Source: Candidatus Poseidoniaceae archaeon
Lineage (GTDB): Archaea; Thermoplasmatota; Poseidoniia; Poseidoniales; Poseidoniaceae
Assembly (NCBI GenBank): GCA_943789275.1
Contig: CALSTM010000003.1
Span: forward strand, 540,001-572,000
Length of the DNA stretch: 32,000 bases
Direction: 5' to 3'
The position numbers and the translations under genes were made by a program. Below, one piece after another: positions 5,829 to 15,460 of this stretch. The notes under the pieces are model-generated. The model was not told where the DNA came from. It did not search any database and worked only from the letters and a program-made list of their open reading frames with translations. Every line of letters starts with the position of its first letter. Positions within the stretch are counted from its first letter, which is position 1.

Positions 5829-7202
5829 TCAGTTCTTCCACTTGCCAAGAGCATCTCTTAGAGCAGGTTCAAGTGTGGTATATTGAAACTCATACCCGCT
5901 TTCAGTAAGCCGGTTCGGTCGTATTTTACCGCTGTCAGTGGCTAGGGTTACGCCCATCTTTCCGAGCAGGAACCAAATGCCAATTGGTGGGACGGGAATA
6001 AACGATGGTCGCCACAGCACTTTGCCAAGAATTTTTGCAAACGTCTTTTGTCGAACGGGGTTCGGAGAACCAAAGTTGTAGACACCCTCACATTCTGGAG
6101 TCATCATCAAATGGTCGATAGCGTAGACTTGGTCGTCCATGGCAATCCAAGAATACCATTGCTTACCCCATCCAATTGGACCTCCGGCACCAAGTTGAGC
6201 AGGCAGCAACATCTTCTGAAGTACGCCACCGGTTGCATCCAGCACGAGGCTGGTACGGCAGTGTACGGTTCGCACACCTGCATCAATAGCGGCTTGCGCT
6301 GATTTTTCCCAAGCCACACACATGTCGGGTAGGAACCCTTCACCGACAGCTGACTCTTCAGTCAATTCTTCATCGCCACGGCTACCGTAAATGCCCATTG
6401 CGCTTGAGACAATGAACACTTCAGGCTTGTTTTTGAGACCTGCAATGGTTGAAGCAAGGAGACTTGTGCTGTCAGTACGACTTTTTTCAAGAACGATTTT
6501 TCGCTGTTTTGTCCAGCGCTTGTCGCCAATACCCGCACCGCCCAAGTGGATGATGGCGTCAAAACCTTCGAGTTCTTCAGCGTTGATTTCCCCGTCACTT
6601 GGACTCCACTTAATTTGGTTTTTACCAGGCTCTTTACGAACAAGACGCCATACATCATGACCTGCGGTATCAAAGAACGCAATGAGTTGTCGACCAATAA
6701 GACCTGATGAGCCAGCAATCAGGATTTTCTTACGCTTGATGTGTGCGAAGTTGTTGTATCGTTTTGTATCCTTAGAAAGTCGTATTTCACGTGCTTTGAA
6801 CATGCGTTGCAGCCTTTTACGCACGTTTCCTCCACCAAAGACGCGTCCGAGTATACCCATTGGCAGCGTGTATTCAACATGGTCGTCAACTCTGCAGGTT
6901 CCGTTTTCTGTTTCAACAAAGGAATGGACGTGGTGCCACGTCTTGAACGGGCCTTTGATCATGGTATCTTCGAACTTATGCGGTGGTTCGTACCCCGAAT
7001 GTTCGGCAATCCACTTCATCTTGATTGGGCCCATTGGAAATTTGAAGGTGAGCCGTGTGCCGTCCTCCAGCGAAGAGAGTTCACCGACTTGCTCGGCTTT
7101 TTCCCACGGCGGCATGAGGCGTCGAAACGCTCCTTTTCGCTCGTGCCAAGCAAAGGTCTCTTCGACACTGGTCACAACTTCTGTAGAGTGCTTGAATTCC
7201 AC
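5829..7202 (-). CDS. SRPBCC (START/polyketide-cyclase-like) domain fused to a TIGR01777/SDR39U1-type NAD-binding epimerase-family domain
   Basis: 457 aa. The N-terminal ~150 aa look SRPBCC-like (VEETFAWHERKGAFRRLMPPWE...). Next comes a Rossmann motif, ILIAGSSGLIGRQL, followed by a DUF1731-like C-terminus (RPNRLTESGYEF.Y..L..AL). The start codon is GTG at 7202-7200, with GAGGTGA 4 nt upstream, and lies 9 nt after the photolyase stop. Confidence 0.85.
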   Translation of the reverse strand: MEFKHSTEVVTSVEETFAWHERKGAFRRLMPPWEKAEQVGELSSLEDGTRLTFKFPMGPIKMKWIAEHSGYEPPHKFEDTMIKGPFKTWHHVHSFVETENGTCRVDDHVEYTLPMGILGRVFGGGNVRKRLQRMFKAREIRLSKDTKRYNNFAHIKRKKILIAGSSGLIGRQLIAFFDTAGHDVWRLVRKEPGKNQIKWSPSDGEINAEELEGFDAIIHLGGAGIGDKRWTKQRKIVLEKSRTDSTSLLASTIAGLKNKPEVFIVSSAMGIYGSRGDEELTEESAVGEGFLPDMCVAWEKSAQAAIDAGVRTVHCRTSLVLDATGGVLQKMLLPAQLGAGGPIGWGKQWYSWIAMDDQVYAIDHLMMTPECEGVYNFGSPNPVRQKTFAKILGKVLWRPSFIPVPPIGIWFLLGKMGVTLATDSGKIRPNRLTESGYEFQYTTLEPALRDALGKWKN

Positions 7203-7211
7203 TTTCTCACC

Positions 7212-8708
7212 TCAATAACGGTATTCTTGAAGGTACGGTTTCAAGTCGAACTTGCGTCGCGTGTTTGCAGATGACATATAGCGAATCTTTCCAAAAATTG
7301 CACGTTCAGGACCCCATGCTCTGTCGTGTCGGCCAAGAACCCAGAAAATTCCCGTGTACGAGTTCGGGTCGCGACCGTCCAAAGCATAACAATCGTTGAG
7401 TTCAATCATCCATTCAGCAGCGATTTGGGGCGATGGAGACCATTCAAGAATTCTTTTCCCCCACAGCATTCTTAGATAATTATGGATGATGCCGTCACGG
7501 ACCAATTGTCGCTGTGCAGCGTTCCAAATCTCGTCGTGTGTATCGGCTTCTTTGATTTGTTTGAGGGTGTACTGAACACGTTCGTCGCTTGCGTGTTCCA
7601 TGAGGGTTGTCTTTGCCCAGTCCGGAAGGGATTCGTATTGGTTGTGTTCAGGAATATGATAGGCGTTGTTAAACCCAAGTTCTCTCCACGTGATGATTTG
7701 GTCGAGGAAGCTTTCAACGGCTCGGTCAAGGTTCCACCATCCTTCTCTTGAGCCCTTTCGAGGCATCTGGATGGTTTCAGGGTCCCAGTTGTTGGTCACT
7801 AAAATTTGCTGAATCACTTCAACGGTGGAGATGTGTCCGAAGTGGAACCACGGAGAAAGACCACTGGTAGCAGGGGATTTCACTTGATTCCGGTCATCAG
7901 CATACCTGTAAAGTCGGTTTGAGAGGAATTCTTGAAGCATTCGAACAGAGGTGCTTCGACCTCCGCGTGCATGAGGTACGGGCGGTACAGAATGGTCAAT
8001 GTCGATGGTTGACAATGCATCACGGCCTGAACTACCAGGTTCACTGGCGCGCCAGAGCCATTCAAACGGTGTGACGTTGAACTCCCAACGCTCACAAAGC
8101 GAGGAGTACAGTTCGTCGTCAAGCCAAAGCGAATGGTCTTTGGAAACGGGATTGAATTGAGGCCAAGTTTCCATACATTCGACGAAATTTTGGTGGACGA
8201 ATCTGCGGAATCCATGGGCCGTTGGATAGGCCCGCTCAGTCCAAGACATAGGGAACACACCGTTGGAGTCAACAGCGACCATGTTTCGGGCTATTGAACG
8301 GCTTGCGTGGCGAACTGCCTTGGATGGGAAGTACGTCGGGAAGTCGTCGGTGACAATCATCACGGCCTCTTTGGACAGGTCGTGGAGTTTGCCTGTGTGG
8401 CCGCTGAGTGGTGTCTCAACCCACGGCACATATCGGATGTTGTTGTCTTTGAAAATGCGAATGTTTTCGAGCATGCCCTGAATCATGAATGTGCAAATTC
8501 TGTCGTTTGCGTACTGGTGACTGGTGGATATCTCTTCAAGGACCAGCAAAGGTACGCCGTGTTGCTCGGCGAGGTGTGCTGCGTATTCAAGCGCAGCATT
8601 GCTGTTGAATCTTCGGCTGGAAATCATCCAGTAGAGGACGTATTTCCCTTCGGTGTTTACCGGTTTTTGATTGCATGACCTTACTCGGTCAATGAGTCGA
8701 GGGTTCAT
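7212..8708 (-). CDS. phr: deoxyribodipyrimidine (CPD) photolyase, class II-like
   Basis: The N-terminal motif is VLYWMISSRRFNSNAALEYA. The FAD-binding C-terminal region reads GIIHNYLRMLWGKRILEWS...DPNSYTGIFWVLGRHDRAWGPERAIFGKIRYMS. I prefer ATG 8708, which forms an ATGA overlap with the Nudix stop and has GGTGGAG 5 nt upstream. The longer ORF start at 8723 is the alternative. Confidence 0.92.
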   Translation of the reverse strand: MNPRLIDRVRSCNQKPVNTEGKYVLYWMISSRRFNSNAALEYAAHLAEQHGVPLLVLEEISTSHQYANDRICTFMIQGMLENIRIFKDNNIRYVPWVETPLSGHTGKLHDLSKEAVMIVTDDFPTYFPSKAVRHASRSIARNMVAVDSNGVFPMSWTERAYPTAHGFRRFVHQNFVECMETWPQFNPVSKDHSLWLDDELYSSLCERWEFNVTPFEWLWRASEPGSSGRDALSTIDIDHSVPPVPHARGGRSTSVRMLQEFLSNRLYRYADDRNQVKSPATSGLSPWFHFGHISTVEVIQQILVTNNWDPETIQMPRKGSREGWWNLDRAVESFLDQIITWRELGFNNAYHIPEHNQYESLPDWAKTTLMEHASDERVQYTLKQIKEADTHDEIWNAAQRQLVRDGIIHNYLRMLWGKRILEWSPSPQIAAEWMIELNDCYALDGRDPNSYTGIFWVLGRHDRAWGPERAIFGKIRYMSSANTRRKFDLKPYLQEYRY

Positions 8709-9196
8709 GCTTCTCCACCCCATGTCTTCGGTAGCGTGTGAAGCATGTACGGGTGGCCACGGGTGTTCTCGTAATCGATGGTACGCAGTGCCTGATTGGA
8801 ATTGACAGCGGAGAGTGCCATTGAATGCATGGCATCGCTGATCCAGTTGAGAGAGTCGAACTCGTCAGCGTTCACAAATCGTGTTTCGACGACTTCTTCA
8901 CCAGGGGTCGGGTTTTCATTTTCCTTCAGTTCAACCAGGTAGGCTATGAAAATGGCAGGTACGCCCTCAAGCAGGCGCTCTCGAACGGATTGTACACCAA
9001 CGACGCGGCCATCGACTTCGCATTCTTCAGAAAGTTCACGCAGGACAGCATGGCTTGGTAGCTCACTCTTGTTGACGTATCCTTTAGGAAGGCCCCAGCA
9101 GTTCTTGTAGCGACCGTGCGCCTCTTGTACGAGCAGAATACTTCGGGATCTGCGGACAATTGCCGCAACTCCTAAATCGCATTCCACGGTGTGCAT
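8705..9196 (-). CDS. Nudix hydrolase
   Basis: The Nudix box GLPKGYVNKSELPSHAVLRELSEECEV fits Gx5Ex7REUxEExGU. I prefer ATG 9196 (MHTVECDLGVAAIV...) because a minus-strand TATA box sits 23 nt upstream. The track start at 9253 would cover that promoter. Confidence 0.85.
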   Translation of the reverse strand: MHTVECDLGVAAIVRRSRSILLVQEAHGRYKNCWGLPKGYVNKSELPSHAVLRELSEECEVDGRVVGVQSVRERLLEGVPAIFIAYLVELKENENPTPGEEVVETRFVNADEFDSLNWISDAMHSMALSAVNSNQALRTIDYENTRGHPYMLHTLPKTWGGEA

Positions 9197-9219
9197 AAAG
9201 AACAGTTTTCGAGCAGAGG

Positions 9220-9226
9220 TTATAAA
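9220..9226 (-). promoter_or_regulatory. archaeal TATA box (TTTATAA on minus strand) for the Nudix-photolyase-SDR operon
   Basis: The plus strand reads ttataaa at 9220-9226. On the minus strand the 3' end of the box is 23 nt from ATG 9196. With the usual archaeal TATA-to-start-site spacing, this implies a leaderless mRNA. Confidence 0.6.
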
Positions 9227-9261
9227 GAAGTGTTTTTGGAAATCGAGGTTCAATACACTCT

Positions 9262-9268
9262 TTTATAA
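9262..9268 (+). promoter_or_regulatory. archaeal TATA box (TTTATAA) for the ribA-led operon
   Basis: tttataa occupies 9262-9268, 22 nt before ATG 9291. The spacing mirrors the opposite-strand box and implies a leaderless mRNA. Confidence 0.6.
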
Positions 9269-9290
9269 TCAGTTTAGCAAACCTCAAATC

Positions 9291-9923
9291 ATGAACAAGA
9301 ACTACAACCTTGATATCAAGAACTATAACCTTGCCAAAGACATCAAATCAGACGCTATACTTCCTACCGAAGAAGGTAATTTTAGAATGCGCGTCTTCGT
9401 TGACGACGCTGGAGCTGAACACAGCATACTCTCCGTTGGACTTGATGACACGACGAAATCTCCACTGGTACGCATCCATTCTGAATGTTTGACTGGTGAT
9501 GCATTTGGTTCGCTTAAGTGTGACTGTGGACCACAGTTGCGTGCTGCAATGAAGCGTATACAAGAAGAAGGATGCGGTGCTGTTGTTTACATGCGACAAG
9601 AAGGTCGCGGTATTGGCCTTGAAGCAAAGATACGCGCTTACGCACTACAAGACTTGGGAATGGATACGCTTGATGCAAACCTCGCGCTCAATTTGCCGGC
9701 CGATGGACGTGAATACGACTTCAGCGCACACATGCTCAAGCAAGTCGGCGTCTCGAAAGTCCGGTTGATGACCAACAATCCTCTCAAAATCGAAGGGCTT
9801 CGTTCAAACGGTATCTCGATCGGTGAACGTGTCCCTCACATCACCGGTCGATGCAAAACCAACAACCATTATCTTTCCACGAAGGCAAAGCGTATGGGTC
9901 ACTTAATTCCAGAACAAGCATAG
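9291..9923 (+). CDS. ribA: GTP cyclohydrolase II
   Basis: The signature VRIHSECLTGDAFGSLKCDCGPQL carries the Zn-binding Cys residues. YMRQEGRGIGL and RLMTNNP are also present. Starting at ATG 9291 gives 210 aa, typical for RibA. The track start at 9189 would span the divergent promoter. Confidence 0.92.
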   Translation: MNKNYNLDIKNYNLAKDIKSDAILPTEEGNFRMRVFVDDAGAEHSILSVGLDDTTKSPLVRIHSECLTGDAFGSLKCDCGPQLRAAMKRIQEEGCGAVVYMRQEGRGIGLEAKIRAYALQDLGMDTLDANLALNLPADGREYDFSAHMLKQVGVSKVRLMTNNPLKIEGLRSNGISIGERVPHITGRCKTNNHYLSTKAKRMGHLIPEQA

Positions 9924-9958
9924 TACTACTTTACAAGTACAACTCTTGAGGCAGTGGT

Positions 9959-10438
9959 ATGGGAAACAAACTTGTCGGTCAGACAGCACCCAATTTCACG
10001 CTTCCATCGACGACCGAGGAAACCATTTCGTTGGCCGATTATGACGACAAATGGAAAGTTCTGTTCTTCTATGCTAAGGACGGCTCCCCAACCTGTAAGC
10101 GCGGGTGTTTGACGTTCAAGGAACAGTTCGATTTGTTCCAATCGCTGACCCCTCCGGTCGAAGTGATTGGAATCAGCCAAGATTCTCTTGAAGACCACCG
10201 CCGTTTCAAATCTGAACTGAATTTACCTTTTGCACTCTTGAGCGACCCTGACCGCGAGGTTGCCGATGCATACGGCGTACCCGTTCACCTCGGTATTTTC
10301 CCAAGCAAGTCTTCGTTCCTCATCGGACCGGACCGCAAGGTCCACTATTGTTACGACTGGCTCTTCCGACCACGCCGTCACGTTGCTCGGATTCTTGATG
10401 CATTCAGTTCCCTCTCATCCGGAGGAGAAATGAAATGA
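9959..10438 (+). CDS. bcp: AhpC/TSA-family thiol peroxidase (Bcp/PrxQ-like)
   Basis: 159 aa with the layout KVLFFYAKDGSPTCKRGC...FALLSDPDREVADAYGV. The peroxidatic Cys sits in a PTC context. The spacing to the second Cys is 3 residues rather than the usual 4, so the subfamily is uncertain. Confidence 0.8.
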   Translation: MGNKLVGQTAPNFTLPSTTEETISLADYDDKWKVLFFYAKDGSPTCKRGCLTFKEQFDLFQSLTPPVEVIGISQDSLEDHRRFKSELNLPFALLSDPDREVADAYGVPVHLGIFPSKSSFLIGPDRKVHYCYDWLFRPRRHVARILDAFSSLSSGGEMK

Positions 10439-11838
10439 ATTGGACCGAATTGTTCCAAGATGCCGGATTGTCCGAGCGAGAAGCGCGCTCCGTTGTTCTC
10501 CTCTCGACCTCAAAAGAACTCAAAGCAAGCGAGTTGGCAAAGAAACTCGGCACCAACCGCCTTGATGCATACAACTCATTGTCAAGACTCACCGAAATTG
10601 GCTTGGTTAGCGTTACTGCCGACCGACCTATGCGCTTTTCTTGTTCGTCGCTTCCGGTTTTATTCAAGCGCCTCATTAAAGACCAGCGCGAGCGAATTGA
10701 CCGTACCAGCCAATCGTTTGACAAACTGATGTCCGGTGCTAAATCCGACTATGAAGAAGAAAAAGACAGTGAATCTGGAGAAACGAACGCTCGATTTGCT
10801 GTGCTAAAAGGTCGAGAACACATTCACAAGAAGATTGCGAACTTTGCTGATGAGGCCGAAGAGCGCCTCACACTGCTTCTCGGCCGATTTGGCATACTCC
10901 ATCTCTGCCGTTCATCCGGCCTCGCTGAAGTAAATTCAGCCTCTCAACGTGGCGTCGTAGTGACCGTTCTTGCCCAACTTGATCGAAGAACAATACGATT
11001 CTACGACCAACTCGATGATGCCATTGAGGTTCGTCACACCGATGAAATCAATTCCTTGGGTGTTCTGCAGGATACGAACAACGTCATTCAATTCCTCCAT
11101 GTCGAGGAAAACCCCGTTGGACGAGGCCGAGAAGATGCTGCACTGGTCATCAACTCCGATGTATTCAGCAGTTCTCATTCGGATTTCGTTTCCGCAATTT
11201 GGAACAAGGCTGTGGATTTTGAAAGTGCAAAGAAGCGCTTTACTGAAGAGCGAATCGTCGACCCGTTGCGACTTACCGTTGGACAAGGTTCGTTCCTTGA
11301 TCAATTCCGCGATGCACTTCAAGTCAGTACCGAACTTCCCGAAAAAGATACGCCGTTCAACCCTGAATCGTTCCTCGCATCAACGCGTGGCATCAATCAA
11401 GCACGTACCGCGTTGCAAGAAGGAACCGTCCAAAGCCTCAACCAGCTTGGCATAGACATCAACACCATGTTGCGTCAAGTTGGACAACGCATCGGCGAAG
11501 AATTGACCTTCAGTCTTCGAAAAATCGAAGGTCATGTTGAATACCTCAATGAATTGATGGACTGGTGGGAACATGCTGGGCTGGGAGAACTCGATTACGA
11601 CAGTGACCCGTTTTTCCACATCATCGTCAAACTTGCTCACCCTGCAAACACCGATTCGAAAGAGGCATTACCACTTTGGGAACTTGACGACGGAATCATC
11701 CAAGGTGCGCTGCTTGCTCGATATCCTGACAACGGTAATGTCCGTGTTCGCCGAGAAGCCGTCGAAGGTAGCGATGAACCAACATGGCGTTACACATTGA
11801 TTTTCATCGATGAAGAATTGGACGAAGAATCGGATTGA
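10435..11838 (+). CDS. TrmB-family transcriptional regulator with an extra C-terminal V4R-like sensor region
   Basis: The start forms an ATGA overlap with the bcp stop, and GGAGGAG lies upstream. The N-terminal TrmB wHTH reads LSEREARSVVLLSTSKELKASELAKKLGTNRLDAYNSLSRLTEIGLV. The middle TrmB_C-like region reads FAVLKGREHIHKKIANFADEAEERL...QRGVVVTVL. The last ~130 aa (GQRIGEEL...GLGELDYD...GIIQGALLARY...VRVRRE) resemble a V4R fold, but that call is inference. Confidence 0.75.
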   Translation: MNWTELFQDAGLSEREARSVVLLSTSKELKASELAKKLGTNRLDAYNSLSRLTEIGLVSVTADRPMRFSCSSLPVLFKRLIKDQRERIDRTSQSFDKLMSGAKSDYEEEKDSESGETNARFAVLKGREHIHKKIANFADEAEERLTLLLGRFGILHLCRSSGLAEVNSASQRGVVVTVLAQLDRRTIRFYDQLDDAIEVRHTDEINSLGVLQDTNNVIQFLHVEENPVGRGREDAALVINSDVFSSSHSDFVSAIWNKAVDFESAKKRFTEERIVDPLRLTVGQGSFLDQFRDALQVSTELPEKDTPFNPESFLASTRGINQARTALQEGTVQSLNQLGIDINTMLRQVGQRIGEELTFSLRKIEGHVEYLNELMDWWEHAGLGELDYDSDPFFHIIVKLAHPANTDSKEALPLWELDDGIIQGALLARYPDNGNVRVRREAVEGSDEPTWRYTLIFIDEELDEESD

Positions 11839-11880
11839 GAAAAAACATCCTTTGATAAGCCGTTGTCCTGAAAACGGTGT

Positions 11881-13098
11881 ATGCGAGCATTCACTTTCTT
11901 TCGCTTTATGCGACAAATTTTGCGGAAGAAACCCGCTGACCTTGACTGGATTCAACGTCAAGGCCTCATCGCAGTGAAATTAGCTCAAATCTTCGCTCTC
12001 CGTCCGGATTTACTCGGTGTCGAAAAATGCCGCCAACTGCAACAATTGTATCAGCATGCTGCGTCCATTGAATCTGAGAACTTGCACGAAACCATCGCCA
12101 AAAAAGCACCGAAAGGTTTCACCGATGCGTTTGATTTCATCGACGACCAACCCCTTGCAGCAGCATCGGTAGGTCAAGTCCATCGTGGGCGACTGAAGAC
12201 GGGCGAAGAAGTCGTTATCAAATTCATTAAGCAGACAAACGCCGTTGAATTCAAGAAAGAAGTAACTCGAATGCGTCGATGGTTGCGAATATTCCTCATC
12301 TTTGCGCCAAAACTCCGAAAGGTTGGCAACCCAATGGCGTTGATCAATCACGTTGCGGATTATACATTGAGAGAACTCGACTTGCGCAACGAAATCAAAG
12401 GGGCAGATGAACTCAAGGGCATTCAGACTTCCTTGTCCAACGACTTCGAAATGTCACTGCTTCGATTCCCAGTGTACTATTCTGAACTGTCCAACCAAGA
12501 CATCCTTGTCTCTGAATACATCGAAGGAATGTCACTGGAAGAAGGCATCGAGGAAAAATCGCTCAGTTGGGATTTCCTGCTTCAGTTCTTCCGCATACAC
12601 GGTGCTTTCTTGTTCGGAATTGGTACCTTCCACGGCGACCTTCATCCAGGGAACTGTATCGTGGACAAAGACGGAAAATTCGTGTTCATCGATAACGGAG
12701 CAATATGCCATGCGCCGAAACATGTTGCGCACTCGCTGTTTACTTTCTTCGACCACCTGTCTCGCCAAGAACGGCAAGAGGCATTCACGGCGTTGCTTGC
12801 CATGACCGAAGTCACACCAAACGAAAAGAAACTCAAGAAGTATTATTCGACGATGGGCGAAATATACCACGACTTTGAGAACAAGCCGGTTGGTGAACAA
12901 AGCCTCACCCGTATCATGATGAAAACGGTCCGTGCTGCGGTAGAACACGCAGGAGCGAACTTTGGTGAGGAAGCCTTCCCGATTATTCGAGCGCTGATGT
13001 ACCTTGACGGTCTTGTCATACGAACACACCCTGATGCTTTGCTTATTCAATCGATGGGGCCTTTCTTGGAAGAGTTCAAAGAAAAACTGAACATTTGA
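11881..13098 (+). CDS. ABC1/UbiB-family atypical protein kinase
   Basis: Family motifs are present: IAVKLAQIFALRPDLL, AAASVGQVHRGRL, VVIKF and FHGDLHPGNCIV..DGKFVFIDNG. Confidence 0.9.
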   Translation: MRAFTFFRFMRQILRKKPADLDWIQRQGLIAVKLAQIFALRPDLLGVEKCRQLQQLYQHAASIESENLHETIAKKAPKGFTDAFDFIDDQPLAAASVGQVHRGRLKTGEEVVIKFIKQTNAVEFKKEVTRMRRWLRIFLIFAPKLRKVGNPMALINHVADYTLRELDLRNEIKGADELKGIQTSLSNDFEMSLLRFPVYYSELSNQDILVSEYIEGMSLEEGIEEKSLSWDFLLQFFRIHGAFLFGIGTFHGDLHPGNCIVDKDGKFVFIDNGAICHAPKHVAHSLFTFFDHLSRQERQEAFTALLAMTEVTPNEKKLKKYYSTMGEIYHDFENKPVGEQSLTRIMMKTVRAAVEHAGANFGEEAFPIIRALMYLDGLVIRTHPDALLIQSMGPFLEEFKEKLNI

Positions 13099-13104
13099 GG
13101 TGGT

Positions 13105-14358
13105 ATGTTGAGCCAATCGATCGCAGTTCTCGGCGCAGGATTGTCTGGACTTCGATGCGCTGCAATCTTACATGAGGCGGGTTTTGATGTTCAGGTCTAC
13201 GAAAAAGCAGACCGCATTGGTGGACGAATGACGACCGATAAAGTCAACGGATTTTTACTTGACCATGGCTTTCATGTGATGCAATCCGCCTATCCGACTT
13301 CGAAGCGTGCCTTTGATTTCCAGAAACTTGGTGCTCAAGCGTTTGAGCCCGGCGCGGTTGTCGTTCAACGCAAGAAAGGCAAGGCCAAGTTTTGGCGTTT
13401 AGCCGACCCTTTCCGACGACCGATCCAAGGTCTTGCAGGCGGATTGAACGGTTTTGCTTCGCAGTTTGATTTGCTGCGCGTTGCTCGTTTACGCCATTCG
13501 GTCCGTCGAGGAAACCTTGAGCGAGTATTTGAGGGGGACGATAAGGAAACCAGCACCATGCTGCGCAAGAGAGGATTCTCACAATCCATGATTGACCGAT
13601 TCTTTCATCCGCTTTTTTCCGGTATTTTTCTTGAAAAGGACCTGCGAACAAACGAGAGAATGTTTCGGTTCGTCTTCAGAATGATGTCGGAAGGTGACAT
13701 GGTTCTACCAAAAGATGGTATTGCCGCAGCCCCCCGCTTTTTGGCTGATGTGCTCGGCGACCAACGCATCCATTTGAGCACTGAGGCCGAACTTCTTGAT
13801 GAGCACACCCTGCGAATTGGTGGTCAGGAAAAAACGTTTGACGCCGTCGTTCATGCTTACAATCCTCGACGGAGTGAAAGCAAGCGCCATGTTTGGACGC
13901 TGCATTTTGATGCACCCACATCGCCTTTCACTTCCAACCACATCATGCTCAACGGCGATGTCAAACTCCACAATCAATTGATTGCCCACATCGCCGTTCC
14001 CTCCGATGTACAGCCCAGTTATGCACCTGAGGGCCGTTCACTGGTTACCGTCACCATCGTTGGTGAAACTGCAGATTCCTTGGGCCTCACCGACGCAAAC
14101 CAAGTGCTTGATGTAGCTACAAAGGAATTACGTTCATGGTTCGGCTCCGAAGTAGATGCATGGCAAACCTTAGCCACTCAACACATTGAACACGCTTTAC
14201 CAGAAGTTGCAGCCGGCACTGCACTTACCGGTCAATCATCAGCAACCGAAGGTCCGTTCGTATGCGGAGACCACACCGTGCATGGGAGCGTCGAAGGGGC
14301 CCTGCTTTCGGCGGAGAAAACTTCTCAGCGAATTATTGAGACGTTCTCTTCCAGTTGA
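13105..14358 (+). CDS. FAD/NAD(P)-dependent oxidoreductase, amine-oxidase / phytoene-desaturase superfamily
   Basis: The N-terminal dinucleotide fold is IAVLGAGLSGLRCAAILHEAGFDVQVYEKADRIGGR. The C-terminal motif is FVCGDHTVHGSVEGALLSA. GAGGTGG lies immediately upstream, and the gene starts 6 nt after the ABC1 stop. Confidence 0.85.
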   Translation: MLSQSIAVLGAGLSGLRCAAILHEAGFDVQVYEKADRIGGRMTTDKVNGFLLDHGFHVMQSAYPTSKRAFDFQKLGAQAFEPGAVVVQRKKGKAKFWRLADPFRRPIQGLAGGLNGFASQFDLLRVARLRHSVRRGNLERVFEGDDKETSTMLRKRGFSQSMIDRFFHPLFSGIFLEKDLRTNERMFRFVFRMMSEGDMVLPKDGIAAAPRFLADVLGDQRIHLSTEAELLDEHTLRIGGQEKTFDAVVHAYNPRRSESKRHVWTLHFDAPTSPFTSNHIMLNGDVKLHNQLIAHIAVPSDVQPSYAPEGRSLVTVTIVGETADSLGLTDANQVLDVATKELRSWFGSEVDAWQTLATQHIEHALPEVAAGTALTGQSSATEGPFVCGDHTVHGSVEGALLSAEKTSQRIIETFSSS

Positions 14359-14433
14359 ACAACGGCCATTTTTCCCGACCGATGAAGAAAAGAAGTCGGC
14401 CCTCTTGGACAAGGTATGGCCAAGGAGGTGAAG

Positions 14434-15225
14434 ATGCTTGGAACGGGTAACGCCTTCATGCCGTACGGCCGATATCACTCGTTTGCACTCATCGATGGCA
14501 AGCACATCATTGACTGTCCTCCAACTGCGATGGCAAGTCTACGTCGTGCTCGCGTTCCTCTCAGCGAGATTGAGACCATCTTCATCACCCATGTTCACGG
14601 TGACCACGTGTTTGGATTCCCGTTCTTGTTGCTTGAACGTCGGTACATTTCCGACCGTGCCATGCTCAAACCTCTCACGGTTGTTGCTGCTGATGGTGTC
14701 AAGGAACATCTGTGGAAATTGTGTGAGTTGGCCTATCCAGGTAGTTTGGAAGAAATATTTGCGACCGTTACATGGAAATCAGAAGTCGAAGGAGAATTGG
14801 ATTCCGGACTCTCTTGGAAACGGTTCCGCGTCCAACACGATGAATCGGTGGATCCTTACGGCTACCATTTCAATTCTGGTCAAGAAGGAAGCTTTGTTCA
14901 CAGCGGTGATTCAGGTCCGTGCCAAACGCTCCATGATGAAATCTGTTCAGCAAGCATGGCCATCATCGAAATGGGGTATCCTGAATGGGTTGATTCTGAC
15001 CATCACCACAAACCTTCAGACATTCAAACGCTGGCAGAAAAGGCAGAATCCGTTCGGTTGATTGTAACGCACACCTACATTGACCAACCCGGTGTTCATT
15101 CAGAAGTCACTGTGACCGATGAATATCCAGTTCATCCAGCAAATGTCCACCATGCTGAAGACGGACTTTGTCTTCATCGAAGCGGAGAGAATTGGGTTCT
15201 TGGAATGAAGAAATACCACGAGTGA
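14434..15225 (+). CDS. metallo-beta-lactamase-fold hydrolase
   Basis: The HxHxDH motif is present (ITHVHGDHVFGFPFLL), with later His/Asp ligands (HSGDSG, VTHTY). I prefer ATG 14434 because AGGAGGTG occupies 14423-14430 with a 3-nt spacer. The track start is 14416. Confidence 0.8.
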   Translation: MLGTGNAFMPYGRYHSFALIDGKHIIDCPPTAMASLRRARVPLSEIETIFITHVHGDHVFGFPFLLLERRYISDRAMLKPLTVVAADGVKEHLWKLCELAYPGSLEEIFATVTWKSEVEGELDSGLSWKRFRVQHDESVDPYGYHFNSGQEGSFVHSGDSGPCQTLHDEICSASMAIIEMGYPEWVDSDHHHKPSDIQTLAEKAESVRLIVTHTYIDQPGVHSEVTVTDEYPVHPANVHHAEDGLCLHRSGENWVLGMKKYHE

Positions 15226-15275: not shown

Positions 15276-15460
15276 ACTGAAAGAGCGTATAAAGCGAGAC
15301 CCTTTATAATCTCGTATTTAATTCACAGAACGATTGAAAACTCTACCTGCAAATCTCATCGACGGTCATACTTATGAGGGGGACTCGGACTAACGCACAT
15401 TATCGCGCAAGTCCCGCCCGGAACTTTGACGATTCGACCAGAACCCAAGAGGCCACCAAC

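Follow-up and report, generated by a model that had tools for sequence, protein, structure and literature searches.

A photolyase-centred gene island conserved across Candidatus Poseidoniales and its predicted role in photoprotection

The light-inducible regulon of the class II LitR regulators (PplR/PmlR) in Pseudomonas comprises phrB, a short-chain dehydrogenase, an FAD-dependent oxidoreductase, ufaM and folE/folX/folM (PMC9758184). Among the systems compared, that regulon is the nearest analogue, similar in logic, of the photolyase-centred gene island described here, which lies in a 32-kb stretch of an archaeal genome (G000:C3:540001-572000, the whole of which is hereafter called the window). 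The genome (2.11 Mb in three contigs, 92.8% complete) is that of a Marine Group II archaeon of the MGIIa family (Candidatus Poseidoniaceae). An earlier note on this DNA had interpreted nine genes in two divergent arms as a candidate light/UV-stress divergon, and this interpretation is partly supported. The core genes keep their arrangement across both main families of the order, include a dedicated RibA paralog, share a promoter element, and co-occur with rhodopsin, and several of them are jointly absent from most photolyase-lacking genomes. The locus probably represents a photoprotection island found throughout the order Candidatus Poseidoniales (Marine Group II) and kept as one evolutionary unit, its function and regulation being predicted from sequence.

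Both the island and the Pseudomonas LitR regulon join a photolyase to a protein of the short-chain dehydrogenase/reductase (SDR) type, an FAD oxidoreductase, membrane-lipid-modifying genes, a GTP cyclohydrolase serving a cofactor pathway and an in-cluster regulator. They differ in the regulator, which is of the archaeal TrmB type with a putative V4R-like domain in the island and MerR/LitR with a LOV photoreceptor in Pseudomonas, and in the cyclohydrolase, which is type II (flavin branch) in the island and type I (folate/pterin branch) in the LitR regulon. Moreover, the island photolyase is predicted to belong to class II, ABC1 and Bcp are part of the core, and the promoters are of the archaeal TATA type. 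The parallel with bacterial light regulons drawn earlier holds for photolyase, SDR and FAD oxidoreductase but not for the type of cyclohydrolase, since Pseudomonas LitR uses the type I enzyme (folE). Light-induced carotenogenesis clusters under CarH/LitR occur in Myxococcus, Thermus, Streptomyces and Bacillus; they resemble the island in linking crtB/crtI to a photolyase and an in-cluster regulator for light protection. Unlike these clusters, the island has no B12-binding MerR regulator, the crt genes of the window's genome are detached from it, and it adds RibA2, Bcp, ABC1 and an SRPBCC::YfcH fusion. A MerR-type LitR/CarH regulator was found in the island in none of 60 loci, the TrmB-like protein being the only regulator there; this search covered the loci and not whole genomes.

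Gene content and conservation of the island

Genes and control elements of the locus, with window coordinates, strand and evidence, are as follows.

4511/4586-5656, plus strand: phytoene/squalene-synthase family gene, crtB-like (PF00494, 227 bits)
5829-7202, minus strand: SRPBCC::YfcH (SDR39U1-type) fusion, last gene of the left arm (TIGR01777, PF03364, Epimerase, DUF1731)
7212-8708 or 8723 (two possible starts), minus strand: predicted class II cyclobutane pyrimidine dimer (CPD) photolyase (full-length alignment to 2XRY)
8705-9196, minus strand: Nudix hydrolase, first gene of the left arm, accessory (PF00293, 53.7 bits)
9197-9290, no strand: divergent control region (sequence and motif scan)
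9291-9923, plus strand: RibA2, a second, island-specific GTP cyclohydrolase II (TIGR00505, 237 bits)
9959-10438, plus strand: Bcp/PrxQ thiol peroxidase (PF00578, 111.7 bits)
10435-11838, plus strand: regulator of 467 aa with a TrmB-type helix-turn-helix (HTH) domain (PF01978, 36.3 bits)
11843-11858, plus strand: putative internal promoter element AAACATCCTTTGATAA (motif scan)
11881-13098, plus strand: ABC1/UbiB-family atypical kinase-like protein (PF03109, 139.6 bits)
13105-14358, plus strand: amine-oxidase-fold flavoprotein, accessory (PF01593, 137.7 bits)
14416/14434-15225, plus strand: MBL-fold hydrolase, flank gene of the window's genus (present near the photolyase only there)

A check of the open reading frames (ORFs) together with family searches recovered all nine genes and families of the earlier note. 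The divergent region of 94 bp, read from the sequence, lies between the Nudix ATG at 9196 and the RibA ATG at 9291; ATGA overlaps join Nudix to photolyase (8705-8708) and Bcp to the regulator (10435-10438); the reported spacings of 9, 35, 42 and 6 nt were confirmed; and the phytoene-synthase-family gene is convergent with the left arm. The gap before MBL is the reported 75 nt if translation starts at ATG 14434, which has GGAGGTGA upstream, and 57 nt if it starts at the earlier ATG 14416.

For the comparison of neighbourhoods, about 20 kb was fetched around each of 60 photolyase orthologs and the window proteins were mapped onto them. Counts refer to genes at most 12 kb from the photolyase in 56 untruncated loci from 15 genera of both main families (genera are coded g1-g21, g1 being the window's genus, and f3 is the other main family, MGIIb).

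SRPBCC::YfcH fusion: 56/56 loci, 15 genera
Bcp: 56/56 loci, 15 genera
TrmB-like regulator: 56/56 loci, 15 genera
RibA: 55/56 loci, 14 genera
ABC1: 52/56 loci, 14 genera
Nudix: 34/56 loci, 7 genera
Phytoene-synthase-family gene, position varying: 33/56 loci, 9 genera
Flavoprotein: 18/56 loci, 3 genera (after ABC1 in g1, g13 and g20 only)
MBL, Orc1 and ALDH: 10/56 loci, 1 genus (g1)

The neighbourhood is therefore not confined to this genome; such confinement would have told against the earlier interpretation. A core running leftward through photolyase and SDR (with Nudix ahead of them in some genera) and rightward through RibA, Bcp, TrmB and ABC1 is kept across both main families, with identities to the window proteins of 45-70% outside the genus at the amino acid level, and the SRPBCC::YfcH gene adjoins the photolyase in all 56 loci. 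Because it is conserved across 15 genera, the arrangement exceeds what chance would leave; the flank genes, which are reshuffled while the core persists, serve as an internal control for background synteny. The nine-gene membership did not survive this comparison, MBL being a flank gene of one genus and the flavoprotein and Nudix reaching three and seven genera. Moreover, in seven g1 genomes (L005, L007, L008, L009, L012, L054 and L055) an FeS-BCP-type (DPRP) photolyase and a convergent fpg/nei gene, both missing from the window, stand between the flavoprotein position and MBL, and so separate MBL from the island.

De novo clustering of the ORFs in these loci combined with Pfam searches revealed a CrtI-family desaturase directly 3' of ABC1 in most genera. 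The phytoene-synthase ortholog changes place between genera: it is left of SDR in g1, g18 and g19, immediately 3' of ABC1-crtI in g2-g8, and convergent in g13. Further recurrent members that are missing from the window are an ABA4-like membrane protein, a classical SDR, a Rieske protein and DUF1295, and in genus g5 (L028-L030) a RudS-like gene, with a 2-thiouracil desulfurase domain and DUF1722, is placed between SDR and photolyase. The comparison supports the recruitment of extra UV/light genes by the island in other genomes, namely the FeS-BCP-type photolyase, Nei, the RudS-like gene, DUF1295, crtI and crtB. Elsewhere in G000, a nei/fpg-like ORF behind an AWACR-TATA element (C2:83557-83802) ends after 81 codons; it may derive, by frameshift or decay, from a copy of the glycosylase gene found in the islands of sister genomes.

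Outside the order, a class II photolyase match was obtained in only 6 of 238 Thermoplasmatota genomes. DUF1295 and RudS-type genes accompany photolyases in bacteria, and in the five non-Poseidoniales loci examined (L100-L104) the photolyase, as in g5, has a RudS-like gene as neighbour, together with two crtI and one crtB in one family. These five loci differ from the island in lacking RibA, Bcp, the regulator, ABC1 and SRPBCC::YfcH, and no core island was found in them. Among the genomes searched, the core arrangement is thus specific to Poseidoniales; the pairing of RudS-like genes with class II photolyases reaches further than the island, being found both in the order and beyond it.

Photolyase is known to co-distribute with proteorhodopsin in Poseidoniales (PMC6461757, PMC10480650). 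Both genes were searched in the same 151 genomes of the order, and the cross-table was made by hand: a photolyase ortholog is present in 97 genomes, 88 have both photolyase and rhodopsin (PF01036), 51 have neither, nine have photolyase without rhodopsin and three have rhodopsin without photolyase. Inside the polymorphic genera g3, g14, g15 and g21 the two sets are identical. What is new here is that most other island genes share the pattern, as seen in 20 photolyase-lacking genomes: island-type RibA was not found in any of the 20, an ABC1 ortholog was not found in 15 and the SDR fusion was not found in 14, and the regulator ortholog was not found in 12 of the 13 such genomes sampled in the regulator search.

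The island also appears to have moved between lineages. In FastTree trees of photolyase, SDR, regulator and ABC1 (quick and unrooted), the other MGIIa genera split off with branch supports of 99-100, and g1 falls among the MGIIb (f3) copies in all four, being sister to or immediately beside g18 and g19 in three of them. In these two genera, as in g1, the synthase gene is placed left of SDR. The identities of housekeeping RibA and of TFB, on the other hand, follow taxonomy. The window's genus thus seems to have replaced or acquired the whole island laterally, which extends a published 'patchwork' of horizontal gene transfer that concerns photolyase alone. Moves of lineages between lit and dark water appear to go along with gain or loss of the island in one piece.

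Enzymes encoded by the island

The photolyase is predicted to be a class II CPD photolyase. Its score against TIGR00591 (357.3 bits) is under the curated cut-off of 550, and its Pfam matches are weak and sub-threshold. In a phmmer search of PDB sequences, however, residues 6-501 align to the Methanosarcina mazei class II CPD photolyase 2XRY (E 2e-64), with 8OET at E about 1e-64 and the rice enzyme 3UMV at E 1.5e-56, as opposed to only E 6e-4 for class I enzymes. The alignment to 8OET shows a highly conserved C-terminal FAD-domain block and pairs the Trp of IITWRE with that of ILIWKE and the Trp of LPDWAK with that of FPSWAK; these we take to be the residues of the class II electron-transfer chain described for M. 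mazei. A second light locus lies outside the window (G000:C2:606731-610647; L002/L003). It encodes a class II-like photolyase homolog of 643 aa that is extended by ~150 aa at its C-terminus and may be a cryptochrome-like protein; the corresponding frames in other genomes have 770-860 aa. Beyond a 130-aa gene, the locus also encodes a 498-aa protein that, as judged by eye, resembles class I/Cry-DASH-type photolyases.

RibA2 scores 237.1 bits against TIGR00505 (cut-off 205.85), and its zinc-binding cysteines (SEC...KCDCG) and the catalytic Tyr of RAYALQ, equivalent to Tyr105, align with Escherichia coli RibA (2BZ0). It shares 54% identity with the housekeeping copy (G000:C2:11376-12011), and both copies are present in all five island-bearing genomes tested; the 20 photolyase-lacking genomes each have a single RibA, which is of the housekeeping type (51-58% identity). 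A maximum-likelihood tree places island and housekeeping RibA on opposite sides of one branch (support 85/80, recovered in 86% of bootstrap trees). Since each of the two clades spans both families, the island copy is an old paralog or xenolog tied to the island. The earlier suggestion that RibA supplies a deazaflavin antenna is unsupported for this genome and was dropped, because every CofH-like gene in it has its best score as MqnE or MqnC, enzymes of the futalosine route to menaquinone, and is under the CofH cut-off.

The Nudix protein contains a Nudix box. Bcp belongs to the BCP/PrxQ group, with an AhpC/TSA domain and a C-x4-C pair in SPTCKRGC that provides the peroxidatic and resolving cysteines. 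SRPBCC::YfcH scores 299.6 bits against TIGR01777 (YfcH), above the cut-off, and its residues 14-453 align to PDB 3OH8 over both the SRPBCC and YfcH parts. A described member of the same SDR39U1/YfcH family (NF050030, 234 bits for the island protein) is ThyD (All2390) of Anabaena, a membrane-associated protein that is up 5- to 8-fold in high light and whose mutant fails to acclimate to high light (PMC11711299). The island protein differs from it in scoring under the equivalog cut-off of 400 and in having an N-terminal SRPBCC domain, as in 3OH8, and these archaea have no thylakoids. By analogy with the high-light role of ThyD, a photoprotective role of SRPBCC::YfcH is plausible.

ABC1 scores 161.9 bits against the UbiB equivalog TIGR01982 (cut-off 487.55). 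A reading as UbiB ortholog was therefore rejected, and the protein is treated as a member of the ABC1 family. The genome encodes MqnC/MqnE-like radical SAM proteins (G000:C1:428798-429982 and C1:508500-509714), each just under its equivalog cut-off; this suggests that menaquinone is made by the futalosine route, rather than ubiquinone, which bears on the possible substrate of ABC1. The flavoprotein gives a weak HpnE match (66 bits), and the search for solved structures yielded no full-length relative, only its FAD-binding N-terminus being matched.

A crtI gene of this genome, in the CrtI family with 363 bits and above the cut-off, lies at C3:478202-479812, 60 kb from the island. There are three SQS_PSY genes in all, including the crtB-like gene of the window. 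The two others form a divergent pair at G000:C2:260288-262989, one HpnD-like (240 bits) and the other a weaker match, and a 62-aa YgaP/DUF2892-like gene (family assigned by eye) adjoins this pair behind an AWACR-type element.

Promoter elements and the TrmB-like regulator

The divergent control region carries a left element AAACACTTCTTTATAA at 9235-9220 (minus strand) and a right element ATACACTCTTTTATAA at 9253-9268 (plus strand), and probably comprises two mirror-image leaderless promoters. Across the order the design reads ATG, ~22 nt, TATA, 3-4 nt, TGTTT, a variable spacer, AAACA, 4 nt, TATA, ~22 nt, ATG. Of 54 loci, 35 carry the right element, 32 the left one and 28 the complete pair; in 26 of these 28 the core-to-core spacer is 17-18 nt. 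The pattern AWACRNNNNWTNATAW (AWACR-N4-TATA) has three matches in the window, all at the three putative promoters, where 0.17 would be expected, and none of 100 shuffled sequences reached three.

The third match, within the 42-nt gap before ABC1, has its TATA-like part beginning 29 nt before the ABC1 ATG. The strict element is found at -37 to -39 in 25 of 57 loci (genera g1, g2 with one locus, g3, g4, g5, g7, g13, g14 and g20), and ATAC variants are found in g12 and g21; it is missing in most g2 loci, where the gap is very small. In place of the two operons under one control region that had been proposed, this conserved and oriented element before ABC1 argues for three transcription units. A scan for promoters and terminators of the bacterial type gave counts equal to those of shuffled sequences and is uninformative for an archaeon.

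Genome-wide, AAC[AG] occurs ten times at a spacing of 4 from a TATA-like site, as against 0-3 times at other spacings. Matches to the element precede crtI, the nei fragment and two small YgaP/DUF2892-like genes (family by eye), one of them with family members next to the island elsewhere. A close variant, AAACAGCGGTATATA, is carried by the promoter of the second photolyase-like gene (643 aa), and a close variant also precedes most of the 20 rhodopsin genes examined. Pooling 319 intergenic TATA-like sites of the whole genome yielded no general upstream consensus, the upstream regions of EF-1alpha and Cdc48 are without the element, and none was found before ABC1 in three island remnants that lack the regulator. 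This distribution fits a regulon signature. The element was rejected as a general TFB-recognition element (BRE) on the absence of a pooled consensus and of matches at EF-1alpha and Cdc48, and was kept as a rival for the strongest promoters.

An alternative TFB was considered as the reader of AWACR and rejected for want of phyletic support, since each of the 25 genomes tested, 20 of which lack photolyase, has the two TFB paralogs. The two TFB genes of G000 lie at C1:212195-213208 and at C3:232.8-233.4 kb; the divergent paralog is extended at its N-terminus, and an AWACR-TATA element stands 148 nt upstream of it.

The candidate reader within the island is the TrmB-like regulator, whose HTH domain scores 36.3 bits against a PF01978 cut-off of 25.6. 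In an AlphaFold2 model (predicted local distance difference test score, pLDDT, of 74) searched with Foldseek, the first ~270 residues match TrmBL2 (5BPD, E 2.7e-14) and TrmB (3QPH). The middle domain matches proteins of the PLD fold, so that the modelled protein has the architecture of the TrmB family, with a winged-helix HTH, a coiled-coil arm and a PLD-like TrmB_C effector domain. Classical TrmB proteins control genes of sugar metabolism or transport in response to a sugar ligand, and there is no sugar gene in the conserved neighbourhood. The C-terminal 138 residues, modelled alone (pLDDT 80.9), gave weak matches (E 5e-4 to 2e-2) to BcsD, Bet3/TRAPP, YslB, the phenol-sensing domains of PoxR/DmpR and H-NOX. 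Pfam returned nothing significant for this C-terminus (best E 0.13), and no cysteine is conserved in it among 19 orthologs. MsvR, a redox-sensitive regulator of methanogens (NF053755), resembles the regulator in having an archaeal HTH and in lying beside oxidative-stress genes, and perhaps in its C-terminal domain, which in MsvR is of the V4R type. The island protein differs in its TrmB HTH and PLD-like middle domain and in having no conserved cysteine in the putative V4R-like domain, and it scores 33.8 bits against the MsvR model, where the cut-off is 220; an identification as MsvR was rejected on the score and the missing cysteine. A small-ligand sensor is more likely than a thiol switch, and the binding site and ligand proposed below are inferred.

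The regulator has a homolog of 79% identity in the Puget Sound MG-II chromosome (CM001443.1), and no ortholog outside the order was found in 238 genomes, where the best matches were TrmB-like proteins of ~25% identity. Many genomes of the order, some without the island, also encode a paralog of the same length and 31-38% identity (e.g. G003:C1:1294690-1295931); no second copy of this kind was found in G000.

Competing explanations and a tentative circuit

The island is conserved in Marine Group II archaea of the sunlit ocean and largely wanting in relatives that have no light genes, a pattern that points to an undescribed archaeal light-stress circuit. Several observations weigh against reading the locus as a photoprotection island. 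SRPBCC::YfcH and ABC1 are kept as a divergent pair in four genomes that have neither photolyase nor rhodopsin (L073-L076, in G025, G004, G001 and G102, respectively); the two genes are directly adjacent in three of these (gaps 65-750 nt), and in L076 they are separated by a crtI-like and a synthase gene. Since the pair persists there, it would have a light-independent role, which suggests a light-independent functional link between the two proteins. The AWACR element is also found ahead of genes that have no evident connection with light (those for a fasciclin-repeat protein, an MMPL transporter and an ABC ATPase), and at ABC1 it works as one oriented half-site; instead of an operator, it could be a BRE-like property of strong promoters. 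The fold matches of the regulator's C-terminus reach template-modelling (TM) scores of about 0.5, a weak match to V4R-like domains. Extra flavin for photolyase and other flavoenzymes would be the simplest remaining reading of RibA2, one reached by inference. Finally, the genomes sampled are metagenome-assembled, 83-98% complete and related to one another, which makes the counts descriptive and not a statistical test, and the synteny loci were anchored on photolyase, so that conservation is conditional on its presence.

The island might, alternatively, be mainly a pigment and membrane-lipid module for proteorhodopsin, supplying retinal or carotenoid together with quinone or isoprenoid, in which the central functions would fall to ABC1, SRPBCC::YfcH, CrtI, CrtB, the ABA4-like protein and the flavoprotein, with the photolyase and antioxidant genes as passengers. 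In most genera ABC1 is directly followed by CrtI, the ABA4-like gene and CrtB, the crtI of this genome is a true member of its family by score, SRPBCC is a lipid-binding fold, the photolyase co-occurs with rhodopsin, and rhodopsin promoters have the same element. Nevertheless, the genes that invariably accompany the photolyase include RibA2, Bcp and the regulator, none of them a pigment enzyme, other genomes add DNA-repair genes (the FeS-BCP-type photolyase and Nei) and not pigment genes, SDR and ABC1 are kept in genomes without rhodopsin, and here crtI is 60 kb away and crtB in a different transcription unit; this explanation is considered unlikely. Somewhat less likely still is an inherited or repeatedly transferred cassette without shared regulation, in which the element is the consensus of strong leaderless Poseidoniales promoters, a BRE read by TFB. 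Its single oriented half-site at a fixed distance from TATA is indeed BRE-like, it stands before highly transcribed rhodopsin genes as well as unrelated ones, and both TFB paralogs occur in 25 of 25 genomes, island or not. Such a cassette is difficult to reconcile with the silence of the 319 pooled TATA-like sites and of the EF-1alpha and Cdc48 upstream regions, with the three regulator-less remnants that have no element at ABC1, and with synteny that is lost in the flanks and kept in the core; moreover, about half of the genome-wide matches precede families sited inside the island in other genomes.

A general regulon against peroxide or oxygen, independent of light and UV and governed by a redox-sensing MsvR-like regulator, would account for the translational coupling of Bcp to the regulator through their ATGA overlap and for the fact that the only sequence match of the regulator's C-terminus is to MsvR (E 2.7e-8). 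The MsvR model score and the lack of a conserved cysteine both contradict it, as does the working of photolyases only with light. Several members are, in addition, missing from genomes without rhodopsin and photolyase, although these are expected to be aerobes too, and an oxidative regulon is accordingly very improbable.

Under the photoprotection reading, the left unit would comprise (Nudix)-class II CPD photolyase-SRPBCC::YfcH, the right unit RibA2-Bcp-TrmB-like regulator, and a third unit would begin at ABC1, followed here by the flavoprotein and in most other genera by crtI, the ABA4-like gene and crtB. Each would be transcribed from a probably leaderless promoter of one design (AWACR, 4 nt, TATA box, ~22 nt, ATG). 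The photolyase would reverse UV-induced pyrimidine dimers, Nudix and Bcp would clear oxidised nucleotides and peroxides, and RibA2 would provide more flavin for photolyase, the CrtI-type desaturase and the flavoprotein as light stress rises, while ABC1 and SRPBCC::YfcH might tune the isoprenoid, quinone or carotenoid composition of the membrane. The TrmB-type regulator could sense a small hydrophobic ligand through its V4R-like domain and act at or beside the AWACR element, setting all three units, its own included; its control would probably extend to crtI, the second photolyase-like gene and rhodopsin elsewhere in the genome. This fuller proposal, a dedicated Marine Group II circuit for light and photo-oxidative stress in which a TrmB-HTH/V4R-like regulator acts at a BRE-proximal AWACR on the three units, crtI, the second photolyase/cryptochrome-like gene and proteorhodopsin, and which travels as a ~10-kb cassette, is put forward tentatively, as a possibility well short of the probability given to the island itself.

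If the proposal is true, one regulator coordinates DNA repair, flavin supply, membrane and carotenoid chemistry and the light-driven pump, and the circuit is the first light regulon predicted for planktonic archaea. The published work consulted notes only the co-occurrence of photolyase and proteorhodopsin; a defined gene set, a candidate cis-element and a candidate regulator for coping with sunlight in these archaea are added here. The island would also give a physiological context to several widespread but poorly understood families, namely archaeal ABC1, SRPBCC::YfcH fusions, the second RibA and TrmB-type/V4R-like regulators. No published diel expression of island genes was found, and in the supplementary data of one Poseidoniales metatranscriptome study the coverage of island genes is too thin, its dark-depleted 'crtD' belonging to another locus (PMC9723583).

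At the right edge of the locus, upstream of orc1 (window 15288-15308), the motifs TATAAAG and CTTTATA form an inverted pair with a 7-nt spacer between them.

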